From Lentisphaerota bacterium (lineage in GTDB: Bacteria > Verrucomicrobiota > Lentisphaeria > Oligosphaerales > JAFGRS01), in the NCBI GenBank assembly GCA_012514865.1, contig JAAYZO010000535.1:1-33540 (forward strand): a stretch of 33,540 bases of DNA, given 5' to 3'. A program made the position numbers and the translations under genes. A model generated the notes under the pieces. That model saw only the letters and a list, made by a program, of their open reading frames with translations, had not been told where the DNA came from and made no database searches. The first letter of the stretch is position 1, and each line of letters begins with the position of its first letter. Below, piece after piece: positions 1 to 33,540 of this stretch.

Positions 1-2
1 CC

Positions 3-86
3 ATCGAGGACCTGAACACCTTCGTCTTCCAGCGTAAGGAACCACGCAAGACGCTGCGCCGGAAGGAACAGCAGCCACTAAGTTGA
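3..86 (+). CDS. Tentative 3' end of an unidentified CDS entering from the left edge (..IEDLNTFVFQRKEPRKTLRRKEQQPLS*)
   Basis: Frame 3 is open from the window edge for 27 codons and ends at TGA 84-86. 20 of 27 codons end in G/C, including the first ten. It would converge on the EF-G paralog. It is too short for any family call and could be a chance open frame in GC-rich DNA. Confidence 0.25.
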   Translation: MEDLNTFVFQRKEPRKTLRRKEQQPLS

Positions 87-226
87 CGCGTATGCCCTTC
101 GGGGTGGCCAGGGGAGCGCTGACGCGGTCTTCGTTCAGCCCTGGGGCTGTCACCGGCAGAACGGCGAACCACCCGTACCTCGGAGCTTCCGTCACTGGCA
201 GGTTCCGGCCATTGGAGGAAGATCCG

Positions 227-2293: not shown

Positions 2294-2299
2294 ACAAGA

Positions 2300-2304
2300 T
2301 CCTC
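2300..2304 (-). promoter_or_regulatory. Shine-Dalgarno (GAGGA) for the EF-G paralog
   Basis: The minus strand reads ..GCGAGGATCTTGT-ATG. GAGGA ends 6 nt before the start codon at 2291-2293. Confidence 0.6.
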
Positions 2305-2390
2305 GCTGGCGTCACCGACGCGGTAGCCTCTGCAGGAACCAGGCGAGGCCTGGCCGGCGGCCGGAATGCCGCCTGCGGACAACATGGCGT

Positions 2391-2419
2391 AATGTAGCCC
2401 ATCGACGGCCCTCTGTCGG
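2391..2419 (-). promoter_or_regulatory. Candidate sigma70-like promoter for the EF-G paralog (-35 CCGACA, 17-nt spacer, -10 TACATT)
   Basis: On the minus strand CCGACA is at 2414-2419 and TACATT at 2391-2396, with a 17-nt spacer. This is the only relatively AT-rich patch in the 470-bp intergenic region and would give a 5' UTR of about 90 nt. The match to consensus is only moderate, and the promoter rules of this unknown lineage are not known. Confidence 0.25.
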
Positions 2420-2700
2420 CTCTTCCGCCAGGCCGGCGGAGCCAGGCCGGCGGAAGGGCCCCAGGGGAGCGGCTGAGGACAGCCGCCGCCGCGGCAGAGG
2501 AGGCGCCCGGCGGCGCCGGGCCGGGGCTGGTCCCGGGGTCGCCCGGCAAGGGACGCAAGCGACGGAAGGGACTCCAGGAGGGGCGCGCCGCGGAACGTGG
2601 CGCCGCCAGGCGCCCGGCGGTGCCGGGCCGGGGCGGCAGCCCTGGTGTCCCTGGTGTCCCTGGGGTCGCTTTCCTCGTGGTCGACCCTGCGGCGGGGGTT

Positions 2701-2743
2701 AAAAGCCCACGGGGCCGGCCCGAGGTGGGCTGGCCCCGTGGGG
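2701..2743 (-). terminator. Intrinsic (rho-independent-like) terminator of the giant gene
   Basis: Starts 23 nt after the TGA at 2766-2768. The minus strand reads CCCACGGGGCC-AGCCC-acctc-GGGCC-GGCCCCGTGGG followed by CTTTTAA. The outer arms (2706-2716 and 2732-2742) are a perfect 11-bp GC-rich stem, and the inner part can extend it to about 16 bp around a 5-nt loop. The T-tract is only 4 nt. Confidence 0.6.
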
Positions 2744-2765
2744 GGTTGTCAGGTCACGGTGCGCC

Positions 2766-5700
2766 TCAGCGCGGCGGGCCGCTGAGGGGCAGGTTCACCC
2801 GGCGGAACGCCTCGATCCAGTAGGCCCGTCCGGGCACCATGGTGGTGACCGTCTCGTAGGCCATCGTGACCGGGTTCAGGGTCATGATGTTGTTGAGGTT
2901 GACGGTGCCGTTGCCGCCGCCGATGCCGTAGGCGCCGTAGGCGGTGAGGGCATTCGTCTGGACGGCCGGCCCGACGAGGTTCCAGCCCGCCTCGAGGGCC
3001 AGGGTGCCGTCGGTCGGCATGCCGTGCACGGTGAAGGTCGCGCCGTTCGGGAACGGGCAGAAGACCCAGTACCCGACCTTGGCGCGGACGCGGAGCACGG
3101 GGACGTAGCTGCCGCCCTCGTAGGCCCAGACCATGCCGGCGATCACCGGCTGGCCGGCGAAGGCGAAGACGCTCTGGACGTCGCTGGTGACCGGCTCGAC
3201 AGCCAGGGAGATCATGTTCCAGCCGTAGCGCAGGCTGATGGTCTGGCTGCGGTCGCCGGTGCCGAGGCTGATGCGGAAGACCGCCACCGGGGCGACGCCA
3301 TCGCGGTCAGCGCGTTCCAGCAGCTCGGCCATCTCGGCGGAGCTGATGGTGATGTCGCTGAAGGCGCTCATGTCGACGGCCGACCCGGAGACCGGGTAGA
3401 GCTCGCCGTAGGGTCCCTCGTCGACGCGGGTGAGGATCAGCGGCGTCTCGGTGACGGGCAGGCCGAGGTCGGTCCAGCGGATGCGGCAGGAGCCCGGGTT
3501 GCGTCCCAGCTCGACCTTGAGGTACCATGCCGTGAGGTCGCCGTAGGGCCGCATATCGGTGGTCAGGCGGGTGTGCTCCTGATCGAAGCCGATGATGTAG
3601 CTGCTGCCGCTGGGCGTGGTGGCGACGGCCGTGCCGGCGCCGACGCCGCCGGGTCCGGTGGGCGGGCCGCTGGGATCACCGGGCGGCGGGATGCTGGTGG
3701 GCAGGTCCGCGTCGATGCCCATGTCGAAGCCCTGGGTGGCACCGGAGCGCCAGCCGATGGTGACCGTCTGGGTGACGGCCGGGGTGCCATCGGTGAAGGT
3801 CTTGTCGACCTGGATGGACTGCGTCCAGCTCCGGCTGCCGATGGTGACCTCATTGCTGAGGGTACCGAGGCTCTCGCCGTTGCGATCGACGGCGAAGACG
3901 AGGCAGGACCAGACCTCACCCTCGGCGGTGTAGCGTGCCGGGACGACGTTGGCCGGCGAGCCGTCGGGGCTGGTGTCGGGCTTGGCATTGGCGAGGATGT
4001 AGTTGTAGCCCTCGTACGGCTGGGCGCCGCTGCCGAAGGGCACCATGAGGCCATTGCGGTACCAGACGTAGCGGTAGGAGACCGCGTCGGCGCCGAGGGG
4101 CGAGATCGCGCCGCCGGCTTCGCAGACCAGGTCCGAGGTGATCTCGGGCGCGGCCGGGGTCAGGACGACATGCGCGGGTGCGCTCGGTCCGCTGGCGCCG
4201 GCGGGGGTCTCGAACCAGAGGTGGACGGAGTACTCGCGGTTGGTGTCGATGAGGATCTGGTTGGTCCAGACCTGGACGTAGTAGATGCCCGGGTCGAGGG
4301 TGGCGACGATGCGGGCGTAGCTCGAGCTGCCCGGCTGGCGCAGCACGCCGATGTCATCGACCTGGCGGATGAAGCGCGGCGCGCCGCCGTTCGGGCTGGC
4401 GCTGTAGAGAGCCAGGACCGTATCGGCCGCATCCGACGCGGAGTTGTGCTGCGGGGTCCACAGCTCGGCGCCGCCATTGGTCTCGAAGGTGACCTTGACC
4501 TGCTCATAGCCCGGGCCGTCCTCGACGACGAACCAGAACCAGTCGCGGTCGTCCTGAGCCACGAAGGAGTGGTCCTGGATGGCGGTATCGGCCAGGCTCA
4601 GCGGGTTGCTCTTGGGCAGGATGCGCCGGGCCTGGTTGGCGGTGTTGTTGGGCTCGTAGGCATAGACGCCGGTGAGGGTCTCGGCGATCACGACCGGGTT
4701 GGAGCTGACGCTGACGCTGGCATTGCCGAAGACATCGACAGCGGTGACCTGGCAGAACCAGCGGTCGCCGGGCTCGGTCTCGGCCTCGTCGAGGACCGGC
4801 GAGGTGAGGCCGTCGACGGCGAGGTAGCCGCCGGCCGTGGCGTCGAAGCGGAACCACTGGTAGAAGTAGGCGAAGACATCGCCATCCGGGTCGCTGGAGC
4901 CGGACGCCGTGCACAGGAGCATATCCTGCGTGAAGGCGGTCTCCGGCGTCACGGTCACCTGAGTCGGGGTCGTCGGCGGGTCGTTGTCGACGACGACATT
5001 GGCGGCGCCGCCGATGACGCGGGTGACGCGCACCTGCGGGTCATTGCCGCTGCCGTAGGTCGGCCGGCTGAGGCCGCCGGCGAGATCGCGGGCGTAGGCC
5101 ATGAAGCCCCACAGGTCACCGCGGCGGGTGAGGTTGCCGCTGAGGCGGACCTGGGTCGCCGAGTTGGCCGCGACCTGCGCTGCCGGCGAGGACATGAAGA
5201 ACTCGCCGTTGCGGTACCAGTCCACCAGGAAGGTGATGCTGGTGGCATTCGGGTTACGCAGGCTGAGGGTGAGGGCATCGCCGACCTCAGGCGCGTCGGG
5301 GTTCAGCGACATGAAGATCGGCCGCTGCGGGGCGGTGCGGACGGTGGTGACGGCGTAGTCGAGGGCGAAGGGCCCCTGCTTGCCGAGGTCGTCCACCGGC
5401 ACGACGACGACGTAGTAGACCTCGCCGGCGGCGGCGCCGAGGCGTGCCAGGTCGAGGGTGACCGAGGTGGCGAGGGCGGCGTTGTCGGCGACGAGGATCG
5501 TCTCGCCGAGGTCGTACAGGCCGTCGGCATCGGCGTCCTCGAAGAGGTCTTCGCCCTCATCCCAGTCGCCGTTGCCGTTGGCATCGATGAAGCCGACGGC
5601 GGCGTTGGGGCTGGTCGGCGCGGCGACGCCGCGGAACCAGTAGTAGCGGTACTGGACGGTGAGGCCGTCGGGGTCGGTCGAGGGCAGGGTCACGACGACA

Positions 5701-8700
5701 CGCAGGACGGCATCGCGGGCCACCTCGTGGGTGGTGGTGGCCGGGTCGATGCGGATCCGCGGCATGCCGGGGGCGTCGTTGCCATCCATGACGACGTCGT
5801 CCATGGTCGGCAGCGGGGCGCCGTTGGCGCTGCCCGGCAGGACCGCGTGCATCCAGCCAGCGCGCCAGTCGGCGTGCCAGGCGAAGTCTTCGATGTGCTC
5901 GCCGGCGTCGTCGAACTTCAGGTAGAGGGCGAGGCCCATGGCCTTGGCCCACGGCGCGGGCTGCGCGTCGTACCAGCTTGCCTTGTTGGCGTAGTCGACC
6001 CAGGCGTCCTCGTCGGCCGGCTGGTAGGCGCGGTCGGCGTTGGCGTCGTGGTAGTACAGGGCCAGGGCGCGCGTGGTGCCGGTGGCGGCGGCCGGGGCGG
6101 CGCCGTGGATGAGCAGGTCAATGCCGGCGTCGTAGGCGCCCGCCGTGCCGATGAGGAGGACGCCGTCGCCGGGCTGGTCGGCCCAGACGGCCTCGCCCTC
6201 GTCCCAGGCGTGGTTGGCGTTGGCGTCGTCGTAGAAGACGCCGGTAGCCAGGCGGCCGACGGTGCCGGACGGCGTCGTCCAGGGCATCTGGCTGACGTGG
6301 CGGTCGACGACGTAGGCGCTGGTGTCGGTGTTGGCGAGGTTGAAGGCATCGGCGAGGCCGCCGTCGTAGGCGCCGATGACCGGCATGGCCGTGCGGCTGC
6401 TGAAGGCGGTGATCTCGGCGTTGCTGCGGGTGGCGCCATTGAGGTAGTAGGTCAGGCCCGAGGTCGGGTCGACGTACTGCAGGGAGCGCGGGTCCACGCC
6501 CCAGATGCGGACCTCGTCGAGGTCGCCGGCGTAGTTCTCGCCGAAGCGCACGAAGGCGGTGCGGGTCGGCAGGACAGTCGGGCAGTACCCGGGCACGCCG
6601 ACCTGCTCGGCGACGAGGACGCCGTCGAGGAAGAGGCTGAGGACGTGTCTGGCCGAGTCGTAGCGTCCGACGAGGTGGTACCACTGGTTCTCGAACAGCT
6701 CGAGGTTGGCGACCTCGGCGGTGCGCAGGTTGGCCAGGGGCGTCGCGCCGGCGTCGGCGGTGTTGGTCCACGCGGTGAACGGGTAGAGGTACTTCCCGCC
6801 GGCGTTCTGGCCGACCTTGAGGCCGATGGCGTAGTTGGTGTCGGCGGTGGCGCCGGGTGTCGTGACCTCGAAGCCGCGGCGGACGAGGAAGAGCTCCTCG
6901 CCGACGGCGTGGTCATCGAGGTCGATCTGGCCGCGCTGGGCCGGGTCGTCGCCGGTGCGGAAGCGGAAGCGCGCCTCGACGGTCCAGCTCGAGAAGGCCA
7001 GGCGCTGCAGGGCGTCGTCGACGCCGGGGGCGCGCAGGAACTCGTCGGTCTCGAGGCGCGCCATGAGGTTGCCGCGGTAGTCAAGGCCGGCGTAGCGGCT
7101 CAGGTCGACGTTGGCATTCACGCGCTCGTTCGAGAGGCTGTTGTAGCCCTGCGTGCCGGTGACGAACTCGGCGTAGTCATCGGCGCCGTCGTCGTCGGTG
7201 TCGACGAGGTTCGGGTCGGTGAAGACGCCCGGCTGCCACTCCTGGATGTCGGTGAGGCCATCGCCATCGCTGTCGGTGGTCTCGTCTTCCGGGACCTTCG
7301 GGTTAGTGCCGGCGAGGTACTCTTCGTAGTTGGTGCGGTTGTCCATATCCGGGTCATCGTTGCGGCCATTGGGGGTCGCGGCGCTGAGCGGATTGAGGTC
7401 ATAGCGGATCTCCCAGCCATCCGGGAGGTCGTCGTCGTCGCTGTCGCGGTCATTCGGGTCGGTGCCCTGGCCGAACTCGACGATGTTGCTGGCGGCGTCG
7501 CCATCCGGATCGCCGGCCGCGCCATGGCGGCCGTTGCCGTCGACGGGGCTGAGGCGGTTGGCGACTTCCCAGCCGTCCGGGAGGCCGTCGCCGTCGGTAT
7601 CGGCGTCGGTCGGGTCGGTGAGGTAGTCACGTTCCTGGCTGTTGGTGAGGCCATCGGCGTCGGGATCGCCGGCGGCGCCGTTGACGCCGGTGGCGTCGGT
7701 GGCGTCGAGGAGGTAGCGGCGTTCCCAGCCATCCGGGAGGCCATCGCCGTCGGTGTCGCTGTCGAGCGGGTCGGTGGCGTCGCCCCAGTTCGGGGGCACG
7801 CTGACGAGGTCGACGACGAGGTCGGCGCCGAGGTACTCATCGATGTTGCTGAGGCCATCGCCATCGAGGTCGACGCCGGCGTCATCGGCGAGCGGGTTGA
7901 GGCCGTAGGCGACCTCCCAGCCGTCGGCCATGCCGTCGCCGTCGGTATCGGCGAGGCGGGCGCGGGTGCCGGCGCGGTACTCGCCGAGGTTGTCGAGGCC
8001 GTCGTTGTCCGGGTCGCCGGTGGCGCCGTTGGCGCCGGTGGCGTCGTTGGGCATGAGGCCATTGGCGATCTCCCAGGCATCCGGGAGGCCATCGCCGTCG
8101 GCGTCGCTGGCGAGGAGGTTCGGCACATCGGTGTCGAAGGCATAGCCGCCCTCACCGCGGGCCGAGTCAGCCAGGCGGTTGGTGACCATATCCTGGGCGC
8201 CGTAGCGTGCCGGCGAGAGGGCGCTGCCGGCCCACTCGTCGTCGTCCATGATGAAGTAGCTCACCAGGTTGGCCTCGCCGCCGCTGAGGCGCTGGAAGCG
8301 GCTGCCGTTGATCTGCGCCAGGCTGCGGGCGACCTTCCAGACGCGCACGTCGTCGATCTTGCCGGCGAAGCCGCTGAGGCCGTTGCCGCCGAGGGTCAGG
8401 TCGGTGAGCGGCAGATCCGGGGTGATCGAGGTGAAGACGATGCCGCGCATGATGCCGTCGAGGTAGAGGCGGAAGTTGCCGGTCTCGCCGGTGGTGCTGC
8501 GCGGGTCGTAGACGACGGCCAGGTGGTGCCAGGCGGTGGCGTCCTGGACGGTCAGGCTCGAGGTGACCGTCAGGGCGCTGCCGCCGAGGTAGGTGAAGCG
8601 CGCGAAGGGCTTGTGCGTCGCATCGATACCGATCTCGACGGTGACGCTGCTGCCCGAGCGCCGGGACAGGAGGACCTGCTCGGCGGCGGTGGTGCTGGCG

Positions 8701-26300: not shown

Positions 26301-29300
26301 CGAGAATCGGGCTGGTGCCGGCGTAGTATTCGTAGAGGTCGTTCAGGCCGTCGACATCGGCGTCGCCGCTGCCGTCGGTGGTGTCGAGGCTGTCGAAGTA
26401 GCTAAGCTCCCACCAGTCGGGCAGGCCATCGCTGTCCGCGTCGATATCACGGCGGTAGCTCGGGCTGGTGGTGTCGACCTCCATCCTGGCGCCGTTGTGG
26501 AGTCGGACGGCGTTCGCCCAATCCGTCAGCCAGTCTCTGGCGACGGTCGCATCCTGGGCGGTAAGGCCGAAGTCGTCGAAGCTGTAGAGCGCGACCAGGC
26601 CGGCCTCGGTGCCGCTCTGGGTGACCGCCATGGAGGCGGCGATGTCGCTGACGGTGCGGGCCTGATTCCAGATACGGACCTCGTCGATGCGGCCGCTGAA
26701 GCCCTCGCCAATGCGGCTCAGGCGGGCGCCGACCAAGTCAGTCGCGGGCGGCTCATCGTTGACCGTGGTCTGCCACTGGTAGCGGCCGTTGACGACGATC
26801 GTCAGCGTGGCAGCCTGCTCATCGTAGACACCGGCCAGGTGCACCCAGCCGGCCGCGGGCGTCACTCGCGCCAGTTCGGGGACCTCGGTCGAGCGCCACT
26901 CGTAGGTCTGCCCGTGGTGGAGAAGGACGTAACGGACATAGGGCGAGCCGTTGGGCGCGATCGCCAGTTCGTAGTTCACCGTCTGGTCGGGCCCGTGCTG
27001 GATGGCATGGCGGATGACCGAGCCGCCCGCGAAACCGGCATCGGCCTTGACCCAGGCCTCGAGGGTCCAACTGCCGGCCAGGTCGAAGCGCGTCTGCCAC
27101 GGCAGGGCGGCGTAGTCGTCCGAGCCATCGAGCACGAGGACGCCGGGCGTATAGCGCACGCTCACGGCGGGGTCTTCAAGACGGTCGTTGCCATCGGCCG
27201 GGTTCGTCCGGTCGAGGAGTTCGCGAGCGTCGAGGCGGCCATCGTCGTCGGTATCGGCCAGGCGCGGGTGCGTGCCGATGCGCTGCTCCTCCAGGTTGGT
27301 CAGATCGCCGTCGCCGACGATGGCATTGCCGTCGTCGTCATCGCCGTGTTCCTTGCCGTCCTGGATGCCATTGCCATCGCTGTCGCGCTGACGCGGCAGG
27401 GTTCCGGCGAGGTACTCGTAGAGGTTCGTCAGGCCGTCGCCGTCGAGGTCCTGGCTGCCGTCGCTACCGGCGAGGGCGTCGAGGTTGTGGGCCAGTTCCC
27501 ACCAGTCCGGGATGCTGTCGCCATCGGTGTCGCCGAGCATCGGGGCGTAGGTGCCGTCAGTCTCGGTGATCTGGGCGCTGTCGGCGAGGGTCGTCGGGAT
27601 AGCGCTGTGGAAGGCCGCCGTCTCGAGATCCTCTTCGGCGAAGTCCTGGGCCAGGTCGCCGCCGTCGTCAAAGCGGAAGTGTGCGACCATGCCGCCGATG
27701 ACCTGGGCGGTGCCCTGCGAGCCGCGCATGCGGAACTGCAGGTCGGAGAGGAAGATGCCGCTGTCCAGGATGGTGTCGCCGAGGTCGCTGATCGCGAAGC
27801 GCAGGGTGTGCTGCCCGGGTGTCAGCGGCCAGTTGGTGCGCAGGGTCGGCGTGAAGCCGTTGTACTGCATGTTCATGGTCACAACAGTCTTGCCGACGCG
27901 GGCCGGGTGGCCGGGGTAGTAGTCGCCGCTGTTGTCCAACTGGAAGAAGTTATTGTTGACCGTCAGCGGGTTGCCGAGGGAGTCGAAGGAGATGTTGACG
28001 CCGTCGAGGAAGCATCCGAAGGCATCGTTATAGGCCGACCCGACGTAGTACGGGAACTCCTCCGAGCCGAAGACCATGTCGAAGGACAGCCCGGGCACCG
28101 AGCTGTCGCTGGTGAAGGTCAACTCCAGGGCGATGGCGTCGTGGACCGAGTCGGTGCTCATACCGGCGAGGGCGGCGAGCTGGCTGTCCTGCATGGGCGT
28201 AGCGCCCTCGAGCGTGGCCGAGAAGCTCGGGGCGTTGTTGGGGCCGACGACGCGGCTGGCGTCGCCGCTGGTCATAACAACGCCGTCACCGAGCTGCTTG
28301 CTGCCGGCCACCGACGGGAACTGGCTGTAGAGGGCGGTCGGCGTGGGGGCGTTGGTAGCGGTGGGCGTACCGACGAAGGCCGCACTGAGGTTGCTGATGC
28401 CCGCGGGCACCTGACCGCCGAGGAGGGCGTTCATGAGGGCCTGGGCATCCGTGGTCGCTGTCAGGGTGACGGTGTTGGACGAGGTCGCCCCATAGGCCTG
28501 GCCGGACTGCACCGAGGTGTGCATCCACGCTGCGACCTGCCAGGGCTCGAGCACGGCGCCATAGAGGCGGACTTCGTCGATGGCTCCATGGAAAGCGTCA
28601 CCGAGGCTGACCACGGCCACTTCCGGGCCGTAGGTCGGGCACTCCGGGCGTTCGGCAGTGAAGCTGTACTGGTCCATGACCAGGCCATTGACAAAGAGCA
28701 CGAGGGCGTAGGATTCGGCGTCGTAGGTCGCCGCCAGGTGGGTCCACTCGGCCATCGGGAGCTGCGTCGGCGACTCCAGACGGTACGGCGCGACGCCGAG
28801 CCCGTCCTCAGTGCCGAACTCGACGTAGGCGCGGCCATCCTTCAGGCCGATCTGGTAGTTGACCTTGTCGGTATCGACGCGGCGCTGCAGGAGCGACGCG
28901 GTCTGGCCGGCGGTTTCGGGCTTGACCCACAGCTCAAGAGACCAGGTGCTCAGGGCGTACTTGGCCTGGTTCGGGACGAGCAGGCGGCTGGCGCCGTCGA
29001 ACTGGGCGCCGCGGCGGACCGCCGCGCTGTTCGGGTTGAGCGGATCCGAGACCGGCCAGAGCTCGGCGATGCTGGTGCCGAAGGCGGCGGGGTCGTCGCC
29101 GCCGTAGATCTCGATGTAGTCGGAGTTGCCATCGTCGTCGCTGTCGGCTCGCTGCGGGTTGGTGCCGTAGGTCTGCTCGTGAGCGTTGATGACGCCGTCG
29201 GCGTCGACGCTGTCGAGTTGGGCGTCGAGGGTGGTGCCGTCGGTGCGCTCGCGGTCCGGGCGGGTGCCACAGAGGTACTCGTAGAGGTTGCTGAGGCCAT

Positions 29301-32300
29301 CGCCGTCGGCGTCGTTGCCGGCGTCATCGGCGGTCAGGTCGAGGCCGAAGGCGTGTTCCCAGGCGTCGGGCATGCCATCGCCGTCAGCGTCGTCGAAGCC
29401 CCGCAGATCCTTGCCGGCGGCGAACCAGTCGGCCTGGCCGGCGGCGCTGCCGACGCCGTAGTCGGCGGCCACGAGGCTGTAGGCCTCGGCGTAGATCGAC
29501 GGGTAGGCGTGGGTGAAGTCCTCGACGGCCATGCCGCCGTCGTCGAAGCGGTAGTAGGCCAGGAGGCCTTCGCTGGTGCCGTCGATGAGGCGGTGACGCG
29601 CCAGGTCGAGCTGGGCCTGGGTGCGCGGCGCGCCCCAGACGCGGACCTCGTCGACGAGGCCGTCGGCCAGGCCGGCGCCGAGAACGAGGCTCGGGCGACC
29701 GCTGAGCAGGCCGTCGACACCGGCGGCGGCGAGGTCGAGCTCGACCACGGCGGTGCCGTCGACGATGAGGCGGACCAGGCGGGCGACGGGGTCGTAGGCG
29801 GCCGCCACATGTAGCCACTCGCCAGCGGTCGCCGTCACGTCACTGGTGAGGACGTGGGCGCTGAAGCCGTCGGCGGGCGAGGCGGTGATGGCCAGGGCCG
29901 GCTTGCCACCAACCAGGTGCAGGTCAAAGACGACCAGCGCGCCGGCGCCGTTGGGGATGGTCGCCTGGACGAGCGAGCCGTCGGTGTCGGTGCCGACCTG
30001 GAACCACAGCTCGACGGTCCAGCCGTGGGTGAAGTCGAAGCGCGAGGCGTAGGGCATCGTCAGACCGGCGCCGGGGGTGCCGAGGGCGGCGAGGTCGAGG
30101 CTGCGGGCCACGGCCGGGCTCATGCTGTAGCGGCCGCTGGTCGGCGGGTTGCCGAAGTACTCGTCAGCGTCGGCAAGGCCGTCGTCGTCGCTGTCCTGGC
30201 GGCGCGGGTGGCTGCCGCCGGTCTGCTCGTCGAGGTTGCTGAGGCCGTCGTTGTCCTCGTCCTCGTCGGCGTCGCCAAGGCCGTCATTGTCGGTGTCGGC
30301 GTCGTTCGGGTCGAGGTCGGCGAGGTACTCGTAGAGGTCGTTGAGGCCATCGCCGTCAGTGTCGGTATAGCCATCGGGGCCGGCCGCATCCAGGCCGGCG
30401 GTGGTGAGATTGCCGAAGTGGAGGAGTTCCCAGGCGTCCGGGATGCCATCCGCGTCGCTGTCGGCGCCGGCGGCGGTCACGGGCGCGTCGAGAGGCGCGG
30501 GGACCATGGCGGCACTGCCGAGGAGGCGGCCGGCATCGGCCCAGCCGTTGAGCCAGCCGTTCGTCTGGGTGAAGTCTTCCGCGGTGGTGAGGCCGTCGAT
30601 GGCGCTGCCATCCTCGGCGGCACCGCCGTCATCGAAGCGGAAGTAGGCCACCAGGCGGCCGTCGGTGACGGTGGCGTTGCCGTACATACCGGCGGCGATG
30701 CCGGCCCCCGGCAGAGCCGTATTCCAGATGCGGACTTCGTCCATCTGGCCGACGAAGCCGGCGCCGATGCGGGTGAGCACCGGGCCGGTGCCGACCAGGG
30801 CGCAGGAGCCGCTCACCGGCTGGTTCGCGACCTGGACGCCGTTGACGAAGAGACGGAGCTGGTTGCCGGCGTCGTCGAAGGTCGCCGCCAGGTGACTCCA
30901 CTGGCTCAGCGGCAGGGCCGCCAGGCCGTTCAGAACCATGCGCTCGCCGGGCTGCGGCTGCTGGCTGCCATCGACCACGGAGGTGAACTGCACGTACGGC
31001 ACCCCGTCCTCAAGGCCGAGGCGGAAGGTGTAACGGTCGGCGCCGACCTGGCGCTCGATGAGGGTGCCATCGCCGGTCGCAGTCGGCTTGACCCAGGCTT
31101 CGAGAGTCCAGTTGGCGAGGGCGAAGCGCGAGGACAGGGGCAGAACGAGGCTGTCGATGCCGCCGGTCAGCTCCAGGACGCGGTCGACGATGGGGTCGAG
31201 GGCGGTCGTCGGGTCGGTGCCGGCGAGGGCCTCGTCGGCGTCGCTGATGCCGTCGTCGTCGTTGTCCTTCAGGGTCGGGTCGCTGCCGAGGGTCTGCTCC
31301 TGGAGGTTGGTCAGGCCGTCGCCGTCGAAGTCCTCGTCGCCGTCGGCGATGCCGTCGTTGTCGGTATCGGCCTTGTTCGGGTTGGTGCGGCAGAGGTACT
31401 CGTAGAGGCCGTTCAGGCCGTCGCTGTCGGTGTCGCCGGCCGAGACGTCGGCACCGGGGACACTGACCTCGGGGCGCCCGGCCGGGTGGGCCGCATCGTC
31501 ATTGACAAAGCCGTCGTTGTCGTTATCGACGGTGTCGGTGAGGTTCGTCTCCGGGGTGGCCCACGGGCCGGTGAGGTCGTCGGCGACGCCGTCGCCATCG
31601 CTGTCCAGGCCGTCGAAGCGCTCGTCGATATCGACGCCGAAGAGGTCCTCGTACCAGTTGGCGATGCCGTCGTTGTCGCGGTCGTCGGCGGTGCGCACCG
31701 TCGAGAGCAGGGGCGCGGCCGTCGTCGTGACCGTGGCCCCGCCGAGGTTCGCCAGGGCGTAGTCGGCGGCGGTCGCCGACGGGTAGGCCTGCGTGAAGTC
31801 CTCGACGTGGGTGCCGCCGTCGTCGAAGCGCCAGTTCGCCAGGAGGCCGGCGGTGCCGGTCTCGACGATGCGGTCGCGGTTGAGCTCGAGCTGGTCCAGG
31901 CTGCGGGCCGTGCTCCAGACGCGCACCTCGTCGAGGTGGCCGGCGGTCAGGCGCGTGGCGTCATCAGCGACGCCGCGGCTGGCCAGGTAGAGCTGGCCCA
32001 CGCCGGCGACCGGCGTCAGGGTCGTGAACTGCGAGAAGCTCAGGATGCCGTCGACCACCAGGGTCAGGGCCGAGGTCTGCGGGTCCCAGGTCGCGGCGAC
32101 ATGCCGCCAGACACCGGCGTCGAAGGCCGGGATGCCGGCCGCGGCGCCGCCGGCCGTGACCGCGGTGCCGGTCCGGCTCTCGAAGCGCGCGTAGGGCACG
32201 CCGCCGGACAGGCCGATCTCCATCGCGGTGCGGGCGCCGACCACGTAGGCGGCCAGAACGCCGTCCAGATCCGCCTCCGGCTTCACCCAGGCTTCCATCG

Positions 32301-33540
32301 TCCAGGTCGCGCCGCTGCGGTCGAAGCGGCCGCTGTACGGCACCGGGATGCCGGCCGGGCCGATCAGGGCCGAGGACAGGTCCAGGGAGCGGGCCGGGGT
32401 CAGGAGGTCGCCCTCCATGTGGGCCATGCTGTAGCGCGGGCTGGTCACGCGCCAGGTATCGGCGCCGACCTGCAGGACCTCGACGCCGTCAGTGACGCCG
32501 TCGTCATCGCTGTCGGGGTTGCTCGGGTCGGTGCCCAGGGCCATTTCCTCGGCGTTCTTGAGGCCGTCGTTGTCGCTGTCCTCATCGCCGTCGGAGATGC
32601 CGTTGTCGTCGGTATCCGCGTCATTCGGGTCGGTGCCGACGAGGAACTCATCCAGGTCGCTCAGGCCGTCGCCATCGCCGTCGGCGCTGCCGTTGTGGCT
32701 GAGATCGCCGAAGTGCATGATCTCCCAGGCGTCGTCCATGCCATCGCCATCGCTGTCGACCGGGCCGGGGGTCACGGGCGAGGTCAGGGCCGGCGTGCTG
32801 GCGTCGAGTTCCTGGAAGGCGGCGGTGCCGCTGAGGACCGCGGCGTGGGCCCAGCCGGTGAGCCAGTCGCGGGCGTAGGTGGAGACGAACTCCTCGGCGC
32901 GGCGGCTGCCGCTGAGGTCGCCGTCATCGAAGCGCAGGTAGCCGATCAGGCCGCTCTCGTCGCCGGCCAGGGTCGTGGTCATGGCGGCGGCGATCTCGGC
33001 GGCGGTGCGGGCGACGCCCCACAGGCGAACCTCGTCGATGGCGCCGGCAAAGCCGCTGCCGATGAGGACGCGCGGCGTCGTGGTGCCGCGGGTGGTGTTC
33101 GGGAGGGTCAGCACGGGGTGGGTGCTGTTGGCCTGGTCGGTGACGTCGGCGCCGTTGACGACGACGCGCAGGGCGCGTGTCGGCGGGTCGAAGACGGCCG
33201 CGACGTGGGTCCAGGTGGCGCCGTCGGCCGTGATGCTCCCCAGCGAGACAGCGGTGATGGTGGCGCTGGCGGTGTCGGTGAAGACGGCCTTGAGCTTGCC
33301 GCCGTCGAGGAAGAGGCGGTAGTTGCTGTTGCCGGCTTCGAAGGTGCGTTCGAGGATGGTGCCGGTGGTGACGCCGGCGTTCGGGCGGATCCAGGCCTCG
33401 AGGGTGAACTGGCTCAGGGCGAAGCGGTACGACGCGGGCAGCTCGACCATGCTGGTGGCGCTGCCGTCGACGATGACGGCGTGGTAGACGAGCGGGCTGA
33501 GGCTGCTGTCCGGGCGGGTGAGGCCGTTGACCTCAGCGAG
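16873..33540 (-). CDS. Giant LamG/TSP3-repeat surface protein, 5' portion (frame A, 5'-truncated by the window edge). Contains LamG modules 1-13, a choice-of-anchor-L-like domain and two galactose-binding-like jelly-rolls.
   Basis: The ORF track starts at ATG 33450, but the frame stays open to 33540. Those codons read LAEVNGLTRPDSSLSPLVYHAVIVDGSATS, which matches the recurrent inter-module linker, so the true start lies beyond the window. Real coding ends near 17245. The last ~125 codons down to 16873 (..DRRHLRRRRDHPRHGLHRRHRRG..) are Arg/Pro-rich out-of-frame read-through overlapping frame B. Confidence 0.9.
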   Translation of the reverse strand, partial: LAEVNGLTRPDSSLSPLVYHAVIVDGSATSMVELPASYRFALSQFTLEAWIRPNAGVTTGTILERTFEAGNSNYRLFLDGGKLKAVFTDTASATITAVSLGSITADGATWTHVAAVFDPPTRALRVVVNGADVTDQANSTHPVLTLPNTTRGTTTPRVLIGSGFAGAIDEVRLWGVARTAAEIAAAMTTTLAGDESGLIGYLRFDDGDLSGSRRAEEFVSTYARDWLTGWAHAAVLSGTAAFQELDASTPALTSPVTPGPVDSDGDGMDDAWEIMHFGDLSHNGSADGDGDGLSDLDEFLVGTDPNDADTDDNGISDGDEDSDNDGLKNAEEMALGTDPSNPDSDDDGVTDGVEVLQVGADTWRVTSPRYSMAHMEGDLLTPARSLDLSSALIGPAGIPVPYSGRFDRSGATWTMEAWVKPEADLDGVLAAYVVGARTAMEIGLSGGVPYARFESRTGTAVTAGGAAAGIPAFDAGVWRHVAATWDPQTSALTLVVDGILSFSQFTTLTPVAGVGQLYLASRGVADDATRLTAGHLDEVRVWSTARSLDQLELNRDRIVETGTAGLLANWRFDDGGTHVEDFTQAYPSATAADYALANLGGATVTTTAAPLLSTVRTADDRDNDGIANWYEDLFGVDIDERFDGLDSDGDGVADDLTGPWATPETNLTDTVDNDNDGFVNDDAAHPAGRPEVSVPGADVSAGDTDSDGLNGLYEYLCRTNPNKADTDNDGIADGDEDFDGDGLTNLQEQTLGSDPTLKDNDDDGISDADEALAGTDPTTALDPIVDRVLELTGGIDSLVLPLSSRFALANWTLEAWVKPTATGDGTLIERQVGADRYTFRLGLEDGVPYVQFTSVVDGSQQPQPGERMVLNGLAALPLSQWSHLAATFDDAGNQLRLFVNGVQVANQPVSGSCALVGTGPVLTRIGAGFVGQMDEVRIWNTALPGAGIAAGMYGNATVTDGRLVAYFRFDDGGAAEDGSAIDGLTTAEDFTQTNGWLNGWADAGRLLGSAAMVPAPLDAPVTAAGADSDADGIPDAWELLHFGNLTTAGLDAAGPDGYTDTDGDGLNDLYEYLADLDPNDADTDNDGLGDADEDEDNDGLSNLDEQTGGSHPRRQDSDDDGLADADEYFGNPPTSGRYSMSPAVARSLDLAALGTPGAGLTMPYASRFDFTHGWTVELWFQVGTDTDGSLVQATIPNGAGALVVFDLHLVGGKPALAITASPADGFSAHVLTSDVTATAGEWLHVAAAYDPVARLVRLIVDGTAVVELDLAAAGVDGLLSGRPSLVLGAGLADGLVDEVRVWGAPRTQAQLDLARHRLIDGTSEGLLAYYRFDDGGMAVEDFTHAYPSIYAEAYSLVAADYGVGSAAGQADWFAAGKDLRGFDDADGDGMPDAWEHAFGLDLTADDAGNDADGDGLSNLYEYLCGTRPDRERTDGTTLDAQLDSVDADGVINAHEQTYGTNPQRADSDDDGNSDYIEIYGGDDPAAFGTSIAELWPVSDPLNPNSAAVRRGAQFDGASRLLVPNQAKYALSTWSLELWVKPETAGQTASLLQRRVDTDKVNYQIGLKDGRAYVEFGTEDGLGVAPYRLESPTQLPMAEWTHLAATYDAESYALVLFVNGLVMDQYSFTAERPECPTYGPEVAVVSLGDAFHGAIDEVRLYGAVLEPWQVAAWMHTSVQSGQAYGATSSNTVTLTATTDAQALMNALLGGQVPAGISNLSAAFVGTPTATNAPTPTALYSQFPSVAGSKQLGDGVVMTSGDASRVVGPNNAPSFSATLEGATPMQDSQLAALAGMSTDSVHDAIALELTFTSDSSVPGLSFDMVFGSEEFPYYVGSAYNDAFGCFLDGVNISFDSLGNPLTVNNNFFQLDNSGDYYPGHPARVGKTVVTMNMQYNGFTPTLRTNWPLTPGQHTLRFAISDLGDTILDSGIFLSDLQFRMRGSQGTAQVIGGMVAHFRFDDGGDLAQDFAEEDLETAAFHSAIPTTLADSAQITETDGTYAPMLGDTDGDSIPDWWELAHNLDALAGSDGSQDLDGDGLTNLYEYLAGTLPRQRDSDGNGIQDGKEHGDDDDGNAIVGDGDLTNLEEQRIGTHPRLADTDDDGRLDARELLDRTNPADGNDRLEDPAVSVRYTPGVLVLDGSDDYAALPWQTRFDLAGSWTLEAWVKADAGFAGGSVIRHAIQHGPDQTVNYELAIAPNGSPYVRYVLLHHGQTYEWRSTEVPELARVTPAAGWVHLAGVYDEQAATLTIVVNGRYQWQTTVNDEPPATDLVGARLSRIGEGFSGRIDEVRIWNQARTVSDIAASMAVTQSGTEAGLVALYSFDDFGLTAQDATVARDWLTDWANAVRLHNGARMEVDTTSPSYRRDIDADSDGLPDWWELSYFDSLDTTDGSGDADVDGLNDLYEYYAGTSPILVDTDGDGAEDVAEDGDADGLNNQYEQLIGTHPGKRDTDDDGLIDYDEVTADTWVLADGSQGALVIQTGIAFADADLDGVWDPTEDIWQDIAGGTAGRYDADHDRRVHGGSDDWSSRDAVPGINPDAIGGVYFYDTNASGAWDSNENLWCEVNGNRRYDAGIDRQVQRRGSGPLDPLSPLIWRSLKFPAGDAAQVLTIPADERFDASRNSLRSDWTVECWFRLGDDAKNTGSLMRRHQRGVGSAFELGLRDGLPYARTRGLDGLDYEIVARHGLPLTVASGWVHLAAAWENSANSIRLYINGVFAGAVMVRADDIISGNGSDWTTELMGERDGMYLAGNLDEVRIWTLTLTRSRIRSQQELREWMTTALPQVGLGNDDPVNTPTAYYRFDDGHAASGDLPVGAQDFAYDTQVEWRTDWPHALTALGRRFPAESRPYFDSDVAVAMIGTGNTEFDPIPDGWQQLHFGAAAGGWYDLDFPYTGFDPEPEYWSGSSYIDAVTDQEIPARTFIGENPDARTFVTDFFLDTETVESAIFRFSYGGPVGGTGSYNRFWIWVNGERVGGPDTAVSLPHDYFGNLAAGAVDTLDLVNGIRTRLYAGRNRITVHFEHFDADTPVWPLEFWGEVFVNGVRMANEQGNVEWFQMQGLPPYQESADQVHNYRADGTPIRYFWTERFYGLAKWAYDQDPDGDGLDNWSEFLCNTNPLDDDTDGNGIPDGEEDGDGDGLMNGIERSVARYPGAMPNLLDTDDDGFDDGDEVKGSFNPVSSLIPSRPRHLRLTGQDVLTVPEVDDWFWNPNSYLDWTVEAWIKPDEGALNGVILRRAVGRYGKLPTGTDDEYPNESDQYYYATNYEIGLDAEGKPYVGFKTAQGTAWLLTANSPVIADGTTWTHIAGSFSDTERTLRLYVGGELERSLSGVTDAPPTNVKGRAGTTIGAGLPENGSVDYSGFKGGLDDVVLWRTVRTAAQIRASWSGGVSSAVTESFLTRAATNWVMLPHYSLGTERNGLVYAFLFDDGGQTYEDFARRMDWFTGWSHALNRNGTTLASDNAVSGERDSDGDGMPDLWEQENGTDPNVDDSLADPDGDGLSNLYEYYADTDPNEADSDHNGTDDYHDDTDGDTLTNGEEQELGTHPGLVDTDDDGVRDDAELFGSPDGSPDRPHYITSPLYSMAHFDTAVPVDSLGNYRLTPPRSLDLATVNDAVATGTNSGIALPDGDRTAALAQAWSLQAWVRLADDDTGAIISVQVRRRTAAEIGVKDGYPYSRFQAESNKPYTAGGVNVAPKLTPGRWYHIAGSYNAAQNSLSLYVDGVLEYKTIALERPVSGVGSMYVGGNGMAESAAGSATLTSGLVDEVRIRAAAMTLAQVRASRDSIVSGTGLLAYYRFDDGGMAIEDFTRPYGHPAHRDVLKYSLLAGSYGVTDADGDGHADWTVTTDAKTMKGIDDSDADGLPDWWEDVHSGEPALALDATSDLDQDGLSNLYEFYVGTNPYDTDTDNNGVTDGNEDFDRDGLANREEQTHGADPRLTDSDDDGYDDKAEVDAATSPVHPMSRPNFKPASLDLAALAAQTASRGLEIPHPERFAFGQTAWTLETWYRAAADVTTQTGSFLLYEGVNGQSFSFGLEDGAPVGRIFSGTADVVKVGGSAAVPAVPVGSWHHLAVVWAPADNSLRLYRDGILLIAQQTLAVPTIAAGNAWVGRDLTSGHLDEIRVWGEARTEQELNRWRDEIIPTYETIDTGSFSPQLALQELIPDADNPFASRTIYLYSDVLRLYYRFDDAGLLAEDFRAFRDEDYALAGATLTEDQAAPLSGVDDDDGDGLPEWWVSLHNLNNWRQMIWGAPFTDTRNDLNVDGQMTEGYFTPPGGWLAGNPGPHTAVPTGANLPSPLSSSGHMVRDFTVFSSIGTTTNYVEDLMTVLTKSIINYDSGMFMHLMKYIVLDRAPETAPFELLLPNGAVDQMTVNGVGVGLAGTGTVDIATYLRAGRNQIYLRLRDTGGGTSTYFVVPPSFWVYNPGGQAPVLQDRPWPVQAYTWPRASMKMDAALTVDGREVIVRGDHHKFDPRTVWHGRTSTTQQPWTDYSGHFPPHQDYGIANDPDFDGVTNLLEFMLGTNPMDRDSDNNGIADGDEDFDGDGLTNSREDLFGTDPVTKDTDDDGLEDGVEVTAGSDPTDGNSPTVMRGLALDGTAGSYAELPLQARFALTDWTIEAWIRPSALPAAGTTARIVERVVGTKAGQLNINYALHLLPDGKVEACYSDGRGTMVRATSLQPITADGLAWTHVAGVYNDTTRTLTLILDGAQARDRRSTTAPVRSGPGVAYTRIGEGFTGVIDDVRIWGSVRTADEVAATMTGLLVGDEAGLVAYYRFDDDGETAQDSLIANSGDWNRNWTNAAALRGTADVIDLGGASPVLWDVDSDADGMADWWEIHYFGDITVSDGTGDQDGDGLNDLYEYLADLDPTNPDSDDDGILDSAEDTDNDDLTNYEEQQYQTDPRNADTDDDGLKDGDEVTGLTSPRHSMSPAVARHFLVSQAGRTSGLSVPLLATERAQLMPEWTVETWFRADDPSSETGVLVRRSMGALTTFELGIAAGRPYVRYQTDRGTEKRLDADVALAPSTWTHLAATWDSRQRTLSLLLNGASQFRLEFRETDFDYAPASGVGSFTLAAFPSWSTSSVCLDEVRIWTTARTAAQIDRARWELVPASATGLFRCFRFDDGGMSIEDFAHPGWEQADTHAIPAALYGVGDTDADGTADWIGTDEALRLYGFDDSDADGMADWFEVFYRVDDPLADPDNDGLNNLYEFLCGTHPDQLDDCDDCAGDFREDSDGDGLINGLEQRFGTDPRLADSDADGFTDAEEVFGEQMYPGLGLPRQAAVDAYASDPLNPLSNVYPPQRQHLDFASAGAGVIIPDQAKYAAASWTVQAWVLPEAAGHVIQRRTAVQAINYDLGLEADGALRPYARLVMANGREFKVGGAGLAGLAVTAGEWTHLAATFDQNTRTLRLYIDGMPVAERIDLTGEFACACDANGDLDRRHLRRRRDHPRHGLHRRHRRGPHLQRRPAGAADLPRLPHRRQRCRRPGHRLWPGPQQRLSGRRRRGPGPGSRARTAPRQAPAGHQRPAARRPARRPRRHRPVAHRGPGYRPRRGPGRHGPA
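20120..20660 (-). other. Galactose-binding-like jelly-roll insert (copy b)
   Basis: ..MHLMKYIVLDRAPETAPFELLLPNGAVDQMTVNGVGVGLAGTGTVDIATYLRAGRNQIYLRLRD...TVDGREVIVRGDHHKFDPRTVWHG. Clear paralog of copy c. Confidence 0.45.
24365..24795 (-). other. Galactose-binding-like jelly-roll insert (copy a)
   Basis: ..AIFRFSYGG...FWIWVNGERVGG...LDLVNGIRTRLYAGRNRITVHFEH..EVFVNGVRM. This resembles the ..vNG..vG...D(i/l)T..L..G.N.i.v. pattern of sugar-binding jelly-rolls. Assigned by motif only. Confidence 0.4.
27733..28475 (-). other. Choice-of-anchor-L-like domain embedded between LamG modules 5 and 6
   Basis: About 248 aa from NTVTLTATTDAQALMNALLGG to GIFLSDLQF. It contains LELTFTSDSSVPGLSFDMVFGSEEFPYYVGSAYNDAFGCFLDGVNISF, then MQYNGFTPTL, then GQHTLRFAISDLGDTILDSGIFLSDLQF. 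This matches my memory of the choice-of-anchor L signature (F.F.SEEY.., NDvFaFFLdG.NIa, yDGfT, l.iAIaD.gD...DSgvFi). Confidence 0.65.

Follow-up and report, generated by a model that had tools for sequence, protein, structure and literature searches.

To our knowledge, bacterial proteins longer than 10,000 residues are rare and almost none has a known function, and a locus that appears to encode one raises the question of whether it holds a single gene at all and, if so, what kind of protein that gene would specify. The locus considered here is a stretch of 33,540 nt (the window), positions 1 to 33,540 of contig JAAYZO010000535.1 from a Lentisphaerota bacterium (GenBank assembly GCA_012514865.1), in which a preliminary description made from the letters alone had recognized one giant minus-strand gene built of LamG-type modules, calcium-loop repeats and an internal protease. 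We regard it as probable that the window covers the last 30.8 kb, at the 3' end, of a single giant gene from a Lentisphaerota (Victivallales-like) bacterium of the Planctomycetes-Verrucomicrobia-Chlamydiae (PVC) group, and that the product of this gene is a fibre that is secreted, stiffened by calcium, able to bind ligands multivalently and equipped with a deseasin-like protease.

One Gene or Many

The giant gene occupies 2766-33540 on the minus strand (91.7% of the window) and has at least 10,258 in-window codons, its 5' end lying beyond the window and its stop codon being the TGA at 2766-2768. It is made up of two open stretches that overlap by ~500 nt: frame 0 is stop-free from 33540 to 16876 (5,555 codons) and frame 1 from 17387 to 2769 (4,873 codons). 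In a window with a G+C content of 70%, G+C at codon positions 1, 2 and 3 is 0.68/0.48/0.92 in frame 0 and 0.68/0.49/0.94 in frame 1, a pattern indicating the coding signature of a high-GC genome. These values agree with the preliminary description, which had traced a single minus-strand frame with one break from the right edge of the window to that TGA and had put its size at >30.7 kb, ~10,250 codons and 92% of the window. Residue numbers given below refer to the joined (frame-repaired) in-window translation of 10,258 residues, the true N-terminus of which lies upstream. This portion of the protein has a mass of ~1.10 megadaltons (MDa) and a pI of 4.1, with 1,610 acidic (Asp + Glu) versus 632 basic (Lys + Arg) residues and only 28 cysteines (0.3%).

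The number of genes is best judged from an orthologue on CAILUI010000138.1, a 74-kb Victivallales contig for which three overlapping loci were merged and read to position 37,092. The orthologous frame is open without a break from 37,092 to a stop near 2,823, that is, for at least 11,422 codons with the start not reached, and it aligns with residues 3034-10252 of the window protein in one high-scoring segment pair of ~7,200 collinear residues at 67% identity. A further relative, CAIZKT010000577.1, has one open frame of 7,898 codons extending from the contig end. Because the collinear orthologue is uninterrupted over at least 11,422 codons, the locus is predicted to encode one gene and not many, as had been proposed; the window copy itself is not uninterrupted, since it carries a 2-bp deletion that is treated below.

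Long open reading frames (ORFs) are also present on the plus strand, at 2703-17285 (4,861 codons) and across 17170-33540 (913, 1,099, 2,200 and 1,242 codons). These were rejected as genes on the basis of their codon-position G+C of 0.94/0.49/0.68, which mirrors the minus-strand frame and identifies them as antisense shadows. Shadows of this kind, cast by coding DNA rich in G+C at third codon positions (GC3), could mislead gene callers.

LamG Modules and Predicted Calcium-Binding Linkers

The giant protein consists essentially of a unit of ~365 residues repeated 20 times, each unit comprising one LamG (concanavalin-like) module and a linker with three to five TSP3 repeats. When the joined translation was scanned against Pfam as 20 overlapping pieces of ~700 residues, Laminin_G_3 (PF13385) matched 18 of the pieces, 17 of them above the gathering score of 27.6 bits (at 37.8-147 bits). 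A hidden Markov model (HMM) built from eight modules of the giant protein itself identified exactly 20 full-length LamG modules, with a start-to-start spacing of 1.04-1.25 kb wherever no insert intervenes, close to the 20 modules at a period of 1.05-1.2 kb counted in the preliminary description. All are on the minus strand and were placed by this HMM and Pfam. Modules 1-5 (32992-33459, 31888-32355, 30697-31161, 29608-30072 and 28534-28995) are each followed by a linker of ~210 residues with a YYRFDD-type motif and three to five TSP3 repeats. TSP3 linkers likewise accompany modules 6-9 (26641-27123, 25240-25728, 23407-23925 and 22216-22695), 10-13 (21154-21606, 19291-19764, 18256-18726 and 17139-17625), 14-17 (14733-15248, 13470-13955, 11811-12299 and 10671-11195) and 18-20 (9468-9950, 8310-8771 and 6483-7013).

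The linker motifs reported previously, several dozen calcium loops and a recurrent post-LamG signature, are far in excess of chance. The calcium-loop motif D.D.DG..[DN]..E was observed 71 times where 0.04 occurrences were expected from shuffled sequences, and the YYRFDD-type motif 14 times where 0.12 were expected. The Pfam model that recognizes the linkers is the bacterial TSP3_bac (PF18884), present in most pieces with a best score of 71.5 bits (cutoff 25) and four stretches in one piece; the anticipated PF02412 (TSP_3) had no match. A dense run of ~10 repeats, expected at 7.2-8.1 kb, was located at 7158-8105 (-) by motif positions, TSP3_bac (E 5e-20, four stretches) and NCBIfam repeat matches.

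Within the protein, the LamG paralogues are 15-47% identical (median 29%), whereas each of modules 9-20 shares 58-82% identity with the module at the matching position in the orthologue. This difference suggests that the modules are old and individually constrained.

A Subtilase Embedded in Mid-chain

Between LamG modules 13 and 14 lies the only enzyme found in the protein. A propeptide resembling that of fervidolysin (Fervidolysin_NPro-like, PF22148, E 4e-15, 56.3 bits versus a cutoff of 21) at 16821-17030 (-) precedes a Peptidase S8 catalytic domain (PF00082, E 7e-56) at 15918-16682 (-). The preliminary description had placed an I9-S8 protease at 15.8-17.0 kb; the S8 part stands, with an intact triad, and the propeptide is of the PF22148 type instead of the Inhibitor_I9 family (PF05922), for which no match was obtained at E <= 0.01. 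The triad residues Asp5629, His5684 and Ser5844 occur in canonical order within the motifs VAVIDTGV, HGTHCAG and GTSMACPHVAG, all three motifs being kept in both orthologues, and the oxyanion-hole Asn could be identified by eye in TSNSWAG. The closest solved structure is that of deseasin MCP-01 (3vv3; E 2e-109, 369 bits), the match covering the whole catalytic domain. MCP-01 is an abundant secreted collagenolytic subtilase of the deep-sea bacterium Pseudoalteromonas sp. SM9913 (PMC5691207).

The resemblance to MCP-01 thus lies in the catalytic domain and its intact triad, and it extends to the general layout. Deseasin begins with a propeptide, ends in beta-sandwich binding domains and is a stand-alone multidomain protease; its solved catalytic chain (3vv3) has 334 residues. 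In the giant protein, by contrast, the pro-protease is embedded at least ~5,500 residues from the N-terminus of a protein of >10,000 residues, and its position in mid-chain means that removal of the propeptide would sever the carrier protein. Subtilases generally mature by autocleavage at the junction of propeptide and catalytic domain. By analogy, the deseasin-like protease probably cuts the chain on maturation: general subtilase biology would place the cut between its own propeptide and catalytic domain, near residue 5,600, yielding an N-terminal half of ~5,600 residues and a C-terminal half of ~4,600 residues. The latter would keep a tethered active protease able to digest bound proteinaceous substrate.

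Accessory Inserts and the C-terminal Tail

It had been claimed that every unusually long gap between LamG modules is explained by an accessory insert, and inserts were indeed found at all the positions given, although the identity of the one at 24.4-24.8 kb is sub-threshold. The clearest is a choice-of-anchor L domain at 27745-28326 (-), matched by NF038133 (E 2.3e-33, 115.5 bits versus a cutoff of 27) over 192 of 219 profile positions and in keeping with the assignment made earlier for 27.7-28.5 kb. Paired D/N-rich loop units, predicted at 25.8-26.1 kb, were found by motif search at 25741-26085 (-) as two units of ~45 residues with the pattern D.D.DG.WD..E..W ... YD.G.D; they could not be assigned to a family.

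Three further inserts had been described as galactose-binding-like jelly-rolls. Two of these, beta-sandwich insert A at 20119-20658 (-) and insert B at 12672-13160 (-), are homologous to each other by alignment and HMM, insert B showing the signature VNG...DIT.YL..G.N.I.V, and an AlphaFold2 model of insert B serves for both. The model, made from an eight-sequence alignment, is all-beta with a pLDDT of 83. Foldseek comparison of this model with the Protein Data Bank (PDB) returned glycoside hydrolase family 78 (GH78) rhamnosidases, GH2 beta-glucuronidases and a family 35 carbohydrate-binding module (CBM35) with probabilities of ~1 (GH78 and GH2 proteins) and 0.89 (CBM35), at TM scores of only 0.33-0.41 and E >= 3e-3. 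In PDB sequences, a profile of the inserts matched 7kmm (E 0.001) and GH2 proteins (E 0.02-0.3), touching residues ~95-190 of GH2 enzymes and a sialate esterase. On the strength of the model, it is plausible that inserts A and B are galactose-binding-like jelly-rolls, so that two of the three described (20.1-20.7 and 12.7-13.2 kb) have weak fold-level support. The third, a possible jelly-roll at 24490-24780 (-), gave sub-threshold signals only (Pfam BetaGal_ABD2, E 0.13; hhalign to the A/B insert profile, probability 28%). Single-sequence searches of the inserts and the tail against solved structures yielded nothing useful.

The chain ends in a lineage-restricted C-terminal tail of 1,238 residues at 2769-6482 (-), composed of D/N-loop units, beta-sandwich repeats, a PPC-like domain and a conserved terminal module. 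Neither Pfam nor NCBIfam matches the tail significantly, and among PDB sequences it has no relative. It contains three more D/N-loop units at 5433-6227 and ~100-residue beta-sandwich repeats with Y.Y.W.R motifs, and its structure model is poor (pLDDT 48.5), Foldseek indicating only tandem fibronectin type III (FnIII)- or immunoglobulin (Ig)-like beta-sandwiches. The preliminary description expected a PPC domain (PF04151); the window copy of the PPC-like segment (4215-4664) has no such match, although 5 of 16 homologous segments do (best E 8.4e-6). NCBIfam gave FDP_fam at E 0.02 for this segment, and a profile of it had no match of use among solved structures. One of the ~100-residue beta-sandwich domains, with the pattern ...LxCxxxGSxDPDGDxxxYxYxWxR..., is situated at 4590-4904 (residues 9514-9618) and has further copies in the tail. 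Other large proteins, such as P0130 (4,766 residues), have as many as 35 copies of it in tandem, and in Pfam it has only a weak match to Sde0182_C (E 0.028). The 1,200-residue tail query, which includes this domain, gave 1,414 library matches at E <= 0.001.

The conserved terminal module (2769-5024, minus strand) defines a wider family. When the last 1,200 residues were used in an exhaustive HMMER search, the final ~750 were found again at the very C-terminus of other large proteins, among them P0127 (7,825 residues), P0148 (6,315 residues, Oligosphaeraceae), P0152 (5,169 residues) and P0128 (Kiritimatiellota). The complete relatives P0127, P0148 and P0152 have three to six LamG modules and no S8 motifs, and each opens with Met followed by what, judged by eye, is a Sec-type signal peptide (MKSKHAVRSLWGRTLAGLAMLAMAASALA|AP, for example).

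Relatives and Evolution of the Gene

Queries with the tail, the protease and the N-terminal region recovered metagenome-assembled genomes (MAGs) of Victivallales, Lentisphaeria and Kiritimatiellota, which accords with the earlier impression of a PVC-group origin. The nearest is a near-identical MAG labelled 'Verrucomicrobia bacterium WAS_Bin_35'. Public relatives are annotated as 'LamG domain-containing protein' or 'hypothetical protein' and are mostly contig-truncated fragments of up to ~2,000 residues; those from Lentisphaerae and Victivallales are 40-67% identical to the window protein. A metagenome scan for related loci returned nothing closer than 40% identity.

Conservation of module order differs along the gene. 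Residues 3034-10252 are collinear with the CAILUI010000138.1 orthologue, whereas residues 1-3033 (24440-33540) are not: identity there falls to ~32%, the level of paralogues, and the orthologous region matching the window N-terminus has NHL/SGL propeller-like matches and no LamG for 2,433 residues. Even within WAS_Bin_35, contig L006 diverges from the window after ~1,650 residues. Because the N-terminal ~3,000 residues are non-collinear and L006 diverges, the sequences indicate that the 5' part of the gene evolves by module turnover, with the 3' 22 kb staying fixed.

The Frame Break and the Soundness of the Assembly

The single break in the giant frame lies at 17241/17242 (-), where a GG is missing between the two bases, inside LamG module 13. 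The window reads CTCGAC^CGACGGC where relatives read CTCGACGGCGACGGC; frame 0 runs ...LYIDGMPVAERIDLTGEFACACDANGDLD up to the break and then into arginine-rich nonsense, frame 1 resumes after it as ...DGIFDGAETTLGMGFTGAIDEVRIYNGAL, and the repaired reading is ...GEFACACDANGDLDGDGIFDGAETTLG.... Module 13, spanning the junction, matches positions 4-156 of the LamG HMM, both halves belonging to one module. Window positions 17100-17450 were compared by blastn with L085 and L086 (from WAS_Bin_35) and with L087 and L089 (from Victivallales MAGs), which were identical at 351/353 positions (L085), at 96% (L086) and at 74-78% (L087 and L089). All four relatives have the two extra bases and an intact frame at the break site, and L085, L087 and L089 are open from end to end. 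A gene boundary was rejected, since the break falls within a LamG fold matched across the junction, as was programmed frameshifting or recoding, since all relatives are in frame there. The break is a GG deletion specific to the window sequence, and it stems either from an error of sequencing or assembly or from a mutation that inactivates the gene in this strain.

That the deletion is real, leaving a pseudogene or split gene in this strain, is unlikely in our judgment, with an appreciable residual chance. Translation would then end at the TGA at 16873-16875 after ~120 residues out of frame, the product would be an N-terminal LamG fibre of at least ~5,550 residues without protease or tail, and the downstream ORF of 4,850 codons would be silent or would lack an export signal. 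The break is, after all, present in the sequence as given, and very long genes are large mutational targets; a second lesion of ~134 nt affects the same module in L086 (window 17455-17587), and the Kiritimatiellota homologue L088 is also frame-broken, its ORF P0128 beginning at the break inside a LamG module. However, L085 (99% identical over 3.4 kb) and both Victivallales orthologues are in frame, and past the break GC3 is still 0.94 and neither the domains nor the catalytic triad show damage, so that any inactivation would have to be very recent. A 2-bp indel is, moreover, also a typical consensus error, and the identity of L086 to the window changes abruptly right at its lesion, rising from 91% to 96%, as if two strains had been joined into a chimera there. 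The same contigs bear on the more radical proposal that the giant ORF is an assembly artefact produced by collapse, expansion or chimerism of shorter LamG genes, which we consider extremely unlikely. The gene is highly modular, its N-terminal ~3,000 residues are not collinear with the Victivallales orthologue, and WAS_Bin_35 contig L006 starts 11 nt from the right edge of the window (33529-33540), two assemblies thus breaking at one place, all of which could be expected of an artefact. Yet the modules, at 15-47% protein identity, with a longest exact internal DNA repeat of 35 nt and best internal repeats only 66-81% identical, have diverged too far for an assembler to be misled; ~7,200 residues are collinear with an orthologue assembled independently in another study; contigs of WAS_Bin_35 are collinear with window positions 33529-31036, 25928-13543, 17701-14312 and 7086-1080 at 90-99% identity (~21 of 33.5 kb); and the frame and GC3 signal are continuous. 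With internal DNA repeats at most 81% identical, repeat collapse is unlikely, and a tandem-duplication misassembly was rejected on the same repeat identities. For the 3' 22 kb, repeat collapse or chimerism is very unlikely; the 5' 9 kb of the gene is supported in part, L006 being collinear over the first ~1,650 residues.

Irregularities are clustered in or next to LamG module 13 (within 17139-17701), just upstream of the propeptide, and comprise the GG deletion of the window, the ~134-nt deletion of L086 (L086:8098-8434) and the contig end of L085 at 17701. Chance may account for the clustering, as may a junction of strain recombination or a weak spot in assembly. In L088 (JAADHN010000118.1, Kiritimatiellota) the frame break is at 11066-11375, and the C-terminal piece has been deposited as 'LamG domain-containing protein' (P0128/P0285). 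At the right edge of the window, the shared break point suggests that the sequence immediately beyond it, upstream, is hard to assemble or varies between strains.

Comparison with Known Giant Proteins

Giant genes have been documented in PVC bacteria and candidate phyla, including TSP3- and dockerin-rich extracellular types (bioRxiv 10.1101/2023.11.21.568195; PMC12057145), and where giant PVC proteins bear S8 or C39 domains, a role in cleaving the giant has been suggested for these domains (bioRxiv 10.1101/2023.11.21.568195). Proteins of >5,000 residues, all of them uncharacterized, are enriched in a set of phyla that includes Lentisphaerae (PMC11573180). The novelty claimed for the architecture in the preliminary description was therefore overstated, as PVC giant genes, TSP3-rich and S8-bearing ones among them, had already been described (bioRxiv 10.1101/2023.11.21.568195).

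The closest parallel is with the 'Dockerin-type' giants of West-Roberts et al. (2023), which are likewise single ORFs of tens of kilobases from uncultured PVC-related bacteria, are predicted to be extracellular, contain many bacterial TSP3/EF-hand-like repeats and carbohydrate-binding modules, bear S8 domains proposed to cleave, and are often fragmented within the gene in assemblies. The window protein differs from them in phylum (Lentisphaerota/Victivallales, not Omnitrophota), in size (at least 10-11.4 thousand residues versus 30-85 thousand) and in its core of LamG and TSP3, with no dockerin or discoidin (F5_F8_type_C) Pfam match. Its S8 domain stands in mid-chain with its own propeptide, whereas theirs is near the N-terminus, and regions rich in transmembrane segments were not apparent in the part within the window, which was read without a predictor. 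The giant gene on this sequence comparison fits the documented PVC giants, set apart by the LamG + TSP3 unit, the mid-chain pro-subtilase and a family-specific C-terminal module.

Large proteins combining LamG, NHL/SGL and TSP3 domains in Lentisphaerota, Kiritimatiellota and other phyla belong to the same sequence-level family and share the C-terminal module in P0127, P0148 and P0128 and, in four relatives, apparently the EF-G neighbour as well, but in the complete ones (5,169-7,825 residues) the LamG modules number only 3-6 and S8 motifs are absent. RTX adhesins such as MpIBP, LapA and SiiE offer a more distant likeness, being megadalton, acidic, Cys-poor, calcium-binding extracellular chains of tandem beta-sandwich domains with ligand-binding modules along or at the end of the fibre. 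The giant protein, in contrast, has divergent LamG repeats (median 29% identity) in place of near-identical Ig-like spacers, contains an embedded protease and lacks RTX nonapeptides; there are no type I secretion system (T1SS) genes nearby (downstream), and relatives have Sec-type signal peptides. Because nonapeptide motifs and downstream T1SS genes are missing, it is, as far as these markers tell, not an RTX adhesin.

The window itself adds no new principle, being a slightly damaged member of a family that is present but unstudied in public MAGs. The family is nevertheless a tractable case, since a clear plan (20 LamG modules, calcium linkers, one protease and a C-terminal module) is conserved across Victivallales, Oligosphaeraceae and Kiritimatiellota MAGs, and its embedded, apparently active subtilase makes concrete the question of whether PVC giants work as one chain or as cleaved pieces.

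Export and Function

The domain families present (LamG, TSP3, choice-of-anchor L and S8) are all typical of extracellular proteins. Together with the very acidic, Cys-poor chain and the signal peptides of relatives, they suggest that the giant protein is most likely exported, and export would proceed by a Sec signal peptide, as in the more distant relatives sharing the C-terminal module. Outside the cell, to go by the domain families, calcium would fold the chain into a long, acidic, semi-rigid fibre, ordered and stiffened by ~70 or more linker calcium sites, and the fibre would show 20 different LamG faces as well as beta-sandwich modules for multivalent binding. The ligands would most likely be glycans or glycoproteins, carried by particles, by polymers or by other cells. 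The conserved C-terminal module may serve in anchoring or in secretion. Victivallales, Oligosphaeraceae and Kiritimatiellota lineages are thought to live on complex glycans and particles.

Several points weigh against this picture of a secreted binding fibre. The N-terminus, and hence any signal peptide, is reached neither in the window nor in the orthologue, and the signal peptides of relatives were judged by eye without a predictor. No C-terminal sorting signal (PEP-CTERM, LPXTG, type IX secretion C-terminal domain or similar) was detected in the last 659 residues with NCBIfam and Pfam, and no secretion genes were recognized on the downstream side of the gene, the side that the window covers. 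Laminin_G_3 belongs to the lectin/glucanase superfamily, so some LamG modules could be enzymes or plain spacers. The window copy is out of frame and, if the deletion is real, the gene would be inactive or truncated in this strain. For every member of the family, finally, ligand binding, calcium binding, export and cleavage are so far predictions.

That the protein is mainly not an adhesin but a machine for degradation or predation outside the cell, a 'weapon' or cellulosome-like scaffold directed at the cell walls of prey or at polymers, in which LamG and beta-sandwich modules would serve as substrate-targeting or catalytic units, is distinctly unlikely. This reading would accommodate the active-looking subtilase of collagenolytic type, the resemblance of the beta-sandwich inserts to domains accessory to GH2, GH78 and sialate esterase enzymes and the superfamily membership of Laminin_G_3, and giant PVC proteins have been read as predatory or cellulosome-like (bioRxiv 10.1101/2023.11.21.568195; PMC12057145). 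However, no glycoside hydrolase, lyase, lipase, nuclease or toxin domain was found (Pfam over the 10,258 residues; NCBIfam over inserts and tail), leaving the protease as the sole enzyme, and nothing in the window or the inspected loci points to predation. Its size, strong acidity, low Cys content and many calcium sites would also suit a T1SS substrate of the RTX-adhesin kind, which, as with LapA or the 1.5-MDa MpIBP, would be exported unfolded via the C-terminus and brought to its fold by calcium outside the cell; the conserved module always stands at the extreme C-terminus of family members, and among the many structures that the low-confidence tail model resembles are the tandem Ig-like domains of MpIBP. 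This we judge highly improbable, as there are zero GG.G.D nonapeptide motifs, no genes for an ABC transporter, membrane fusion protein or TolC downstream here or in L167 (the downstream genes being EF-G here and EF-G, NUDIX and oxidoreductase genes in L167), and the complete relatives that share the tail have N-terminal Sec-type signal peptides, which T1SS substrates do not have.

A more speculative extension, which we think quite improbable, is that such self-severing of the giant by propeptide autoprocessing is a protease-timed switch that releases or activates one half, in which case the lesion cluster at LamG module 13 might mark a variable or switchable junction and not be due to chance. 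The >1.1-MDa protein would then become two half-megadalton fibres, joined through the complex of propeptide and active site until the propeptide is degraded; a variable N-terminal lectin array might, for example, be shed, the conserved C-terminal half staying on the cell with a live protease. The secreted, calcium-stiffened binding fibre remains the reading we prefer.

The Downstream Region

The intergenic region that follows the giant gene (2294-2765, 472 nt) is very GC-rich and includes a 44-nt direct repeat (2501-2544/2608-2651, 80% identical) and a 14-nt tandem repeat (2427-2454). The protein itself ends ...AFRRVNLPLSGPPR, without a hydrophobic helix or basic tail, and 24-60 nt past the stop codon a GC-rich hairpin with 16-bp arms (2706-2742, minus strand), followed by CTTTT, is terminator-like. 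It falls below the T-run rule, and a terminator and promoter scan of positions 1-3200 returned nothing; Rfam had no match anywhere in the window. Further downstream, a separate gene at 227-2293 (-) encodes an EF-G-like GTPase of 688 residues (Pfam; TIGR00484, 645 bits versus a cutoff of 659). This neighbour is conserved, in that a called EF-G gene lies 3' of the giant gene in L167, and in L001 and L002 an ORF of 685-689 residues occupies the same 3' position (the family scan did not include these two).

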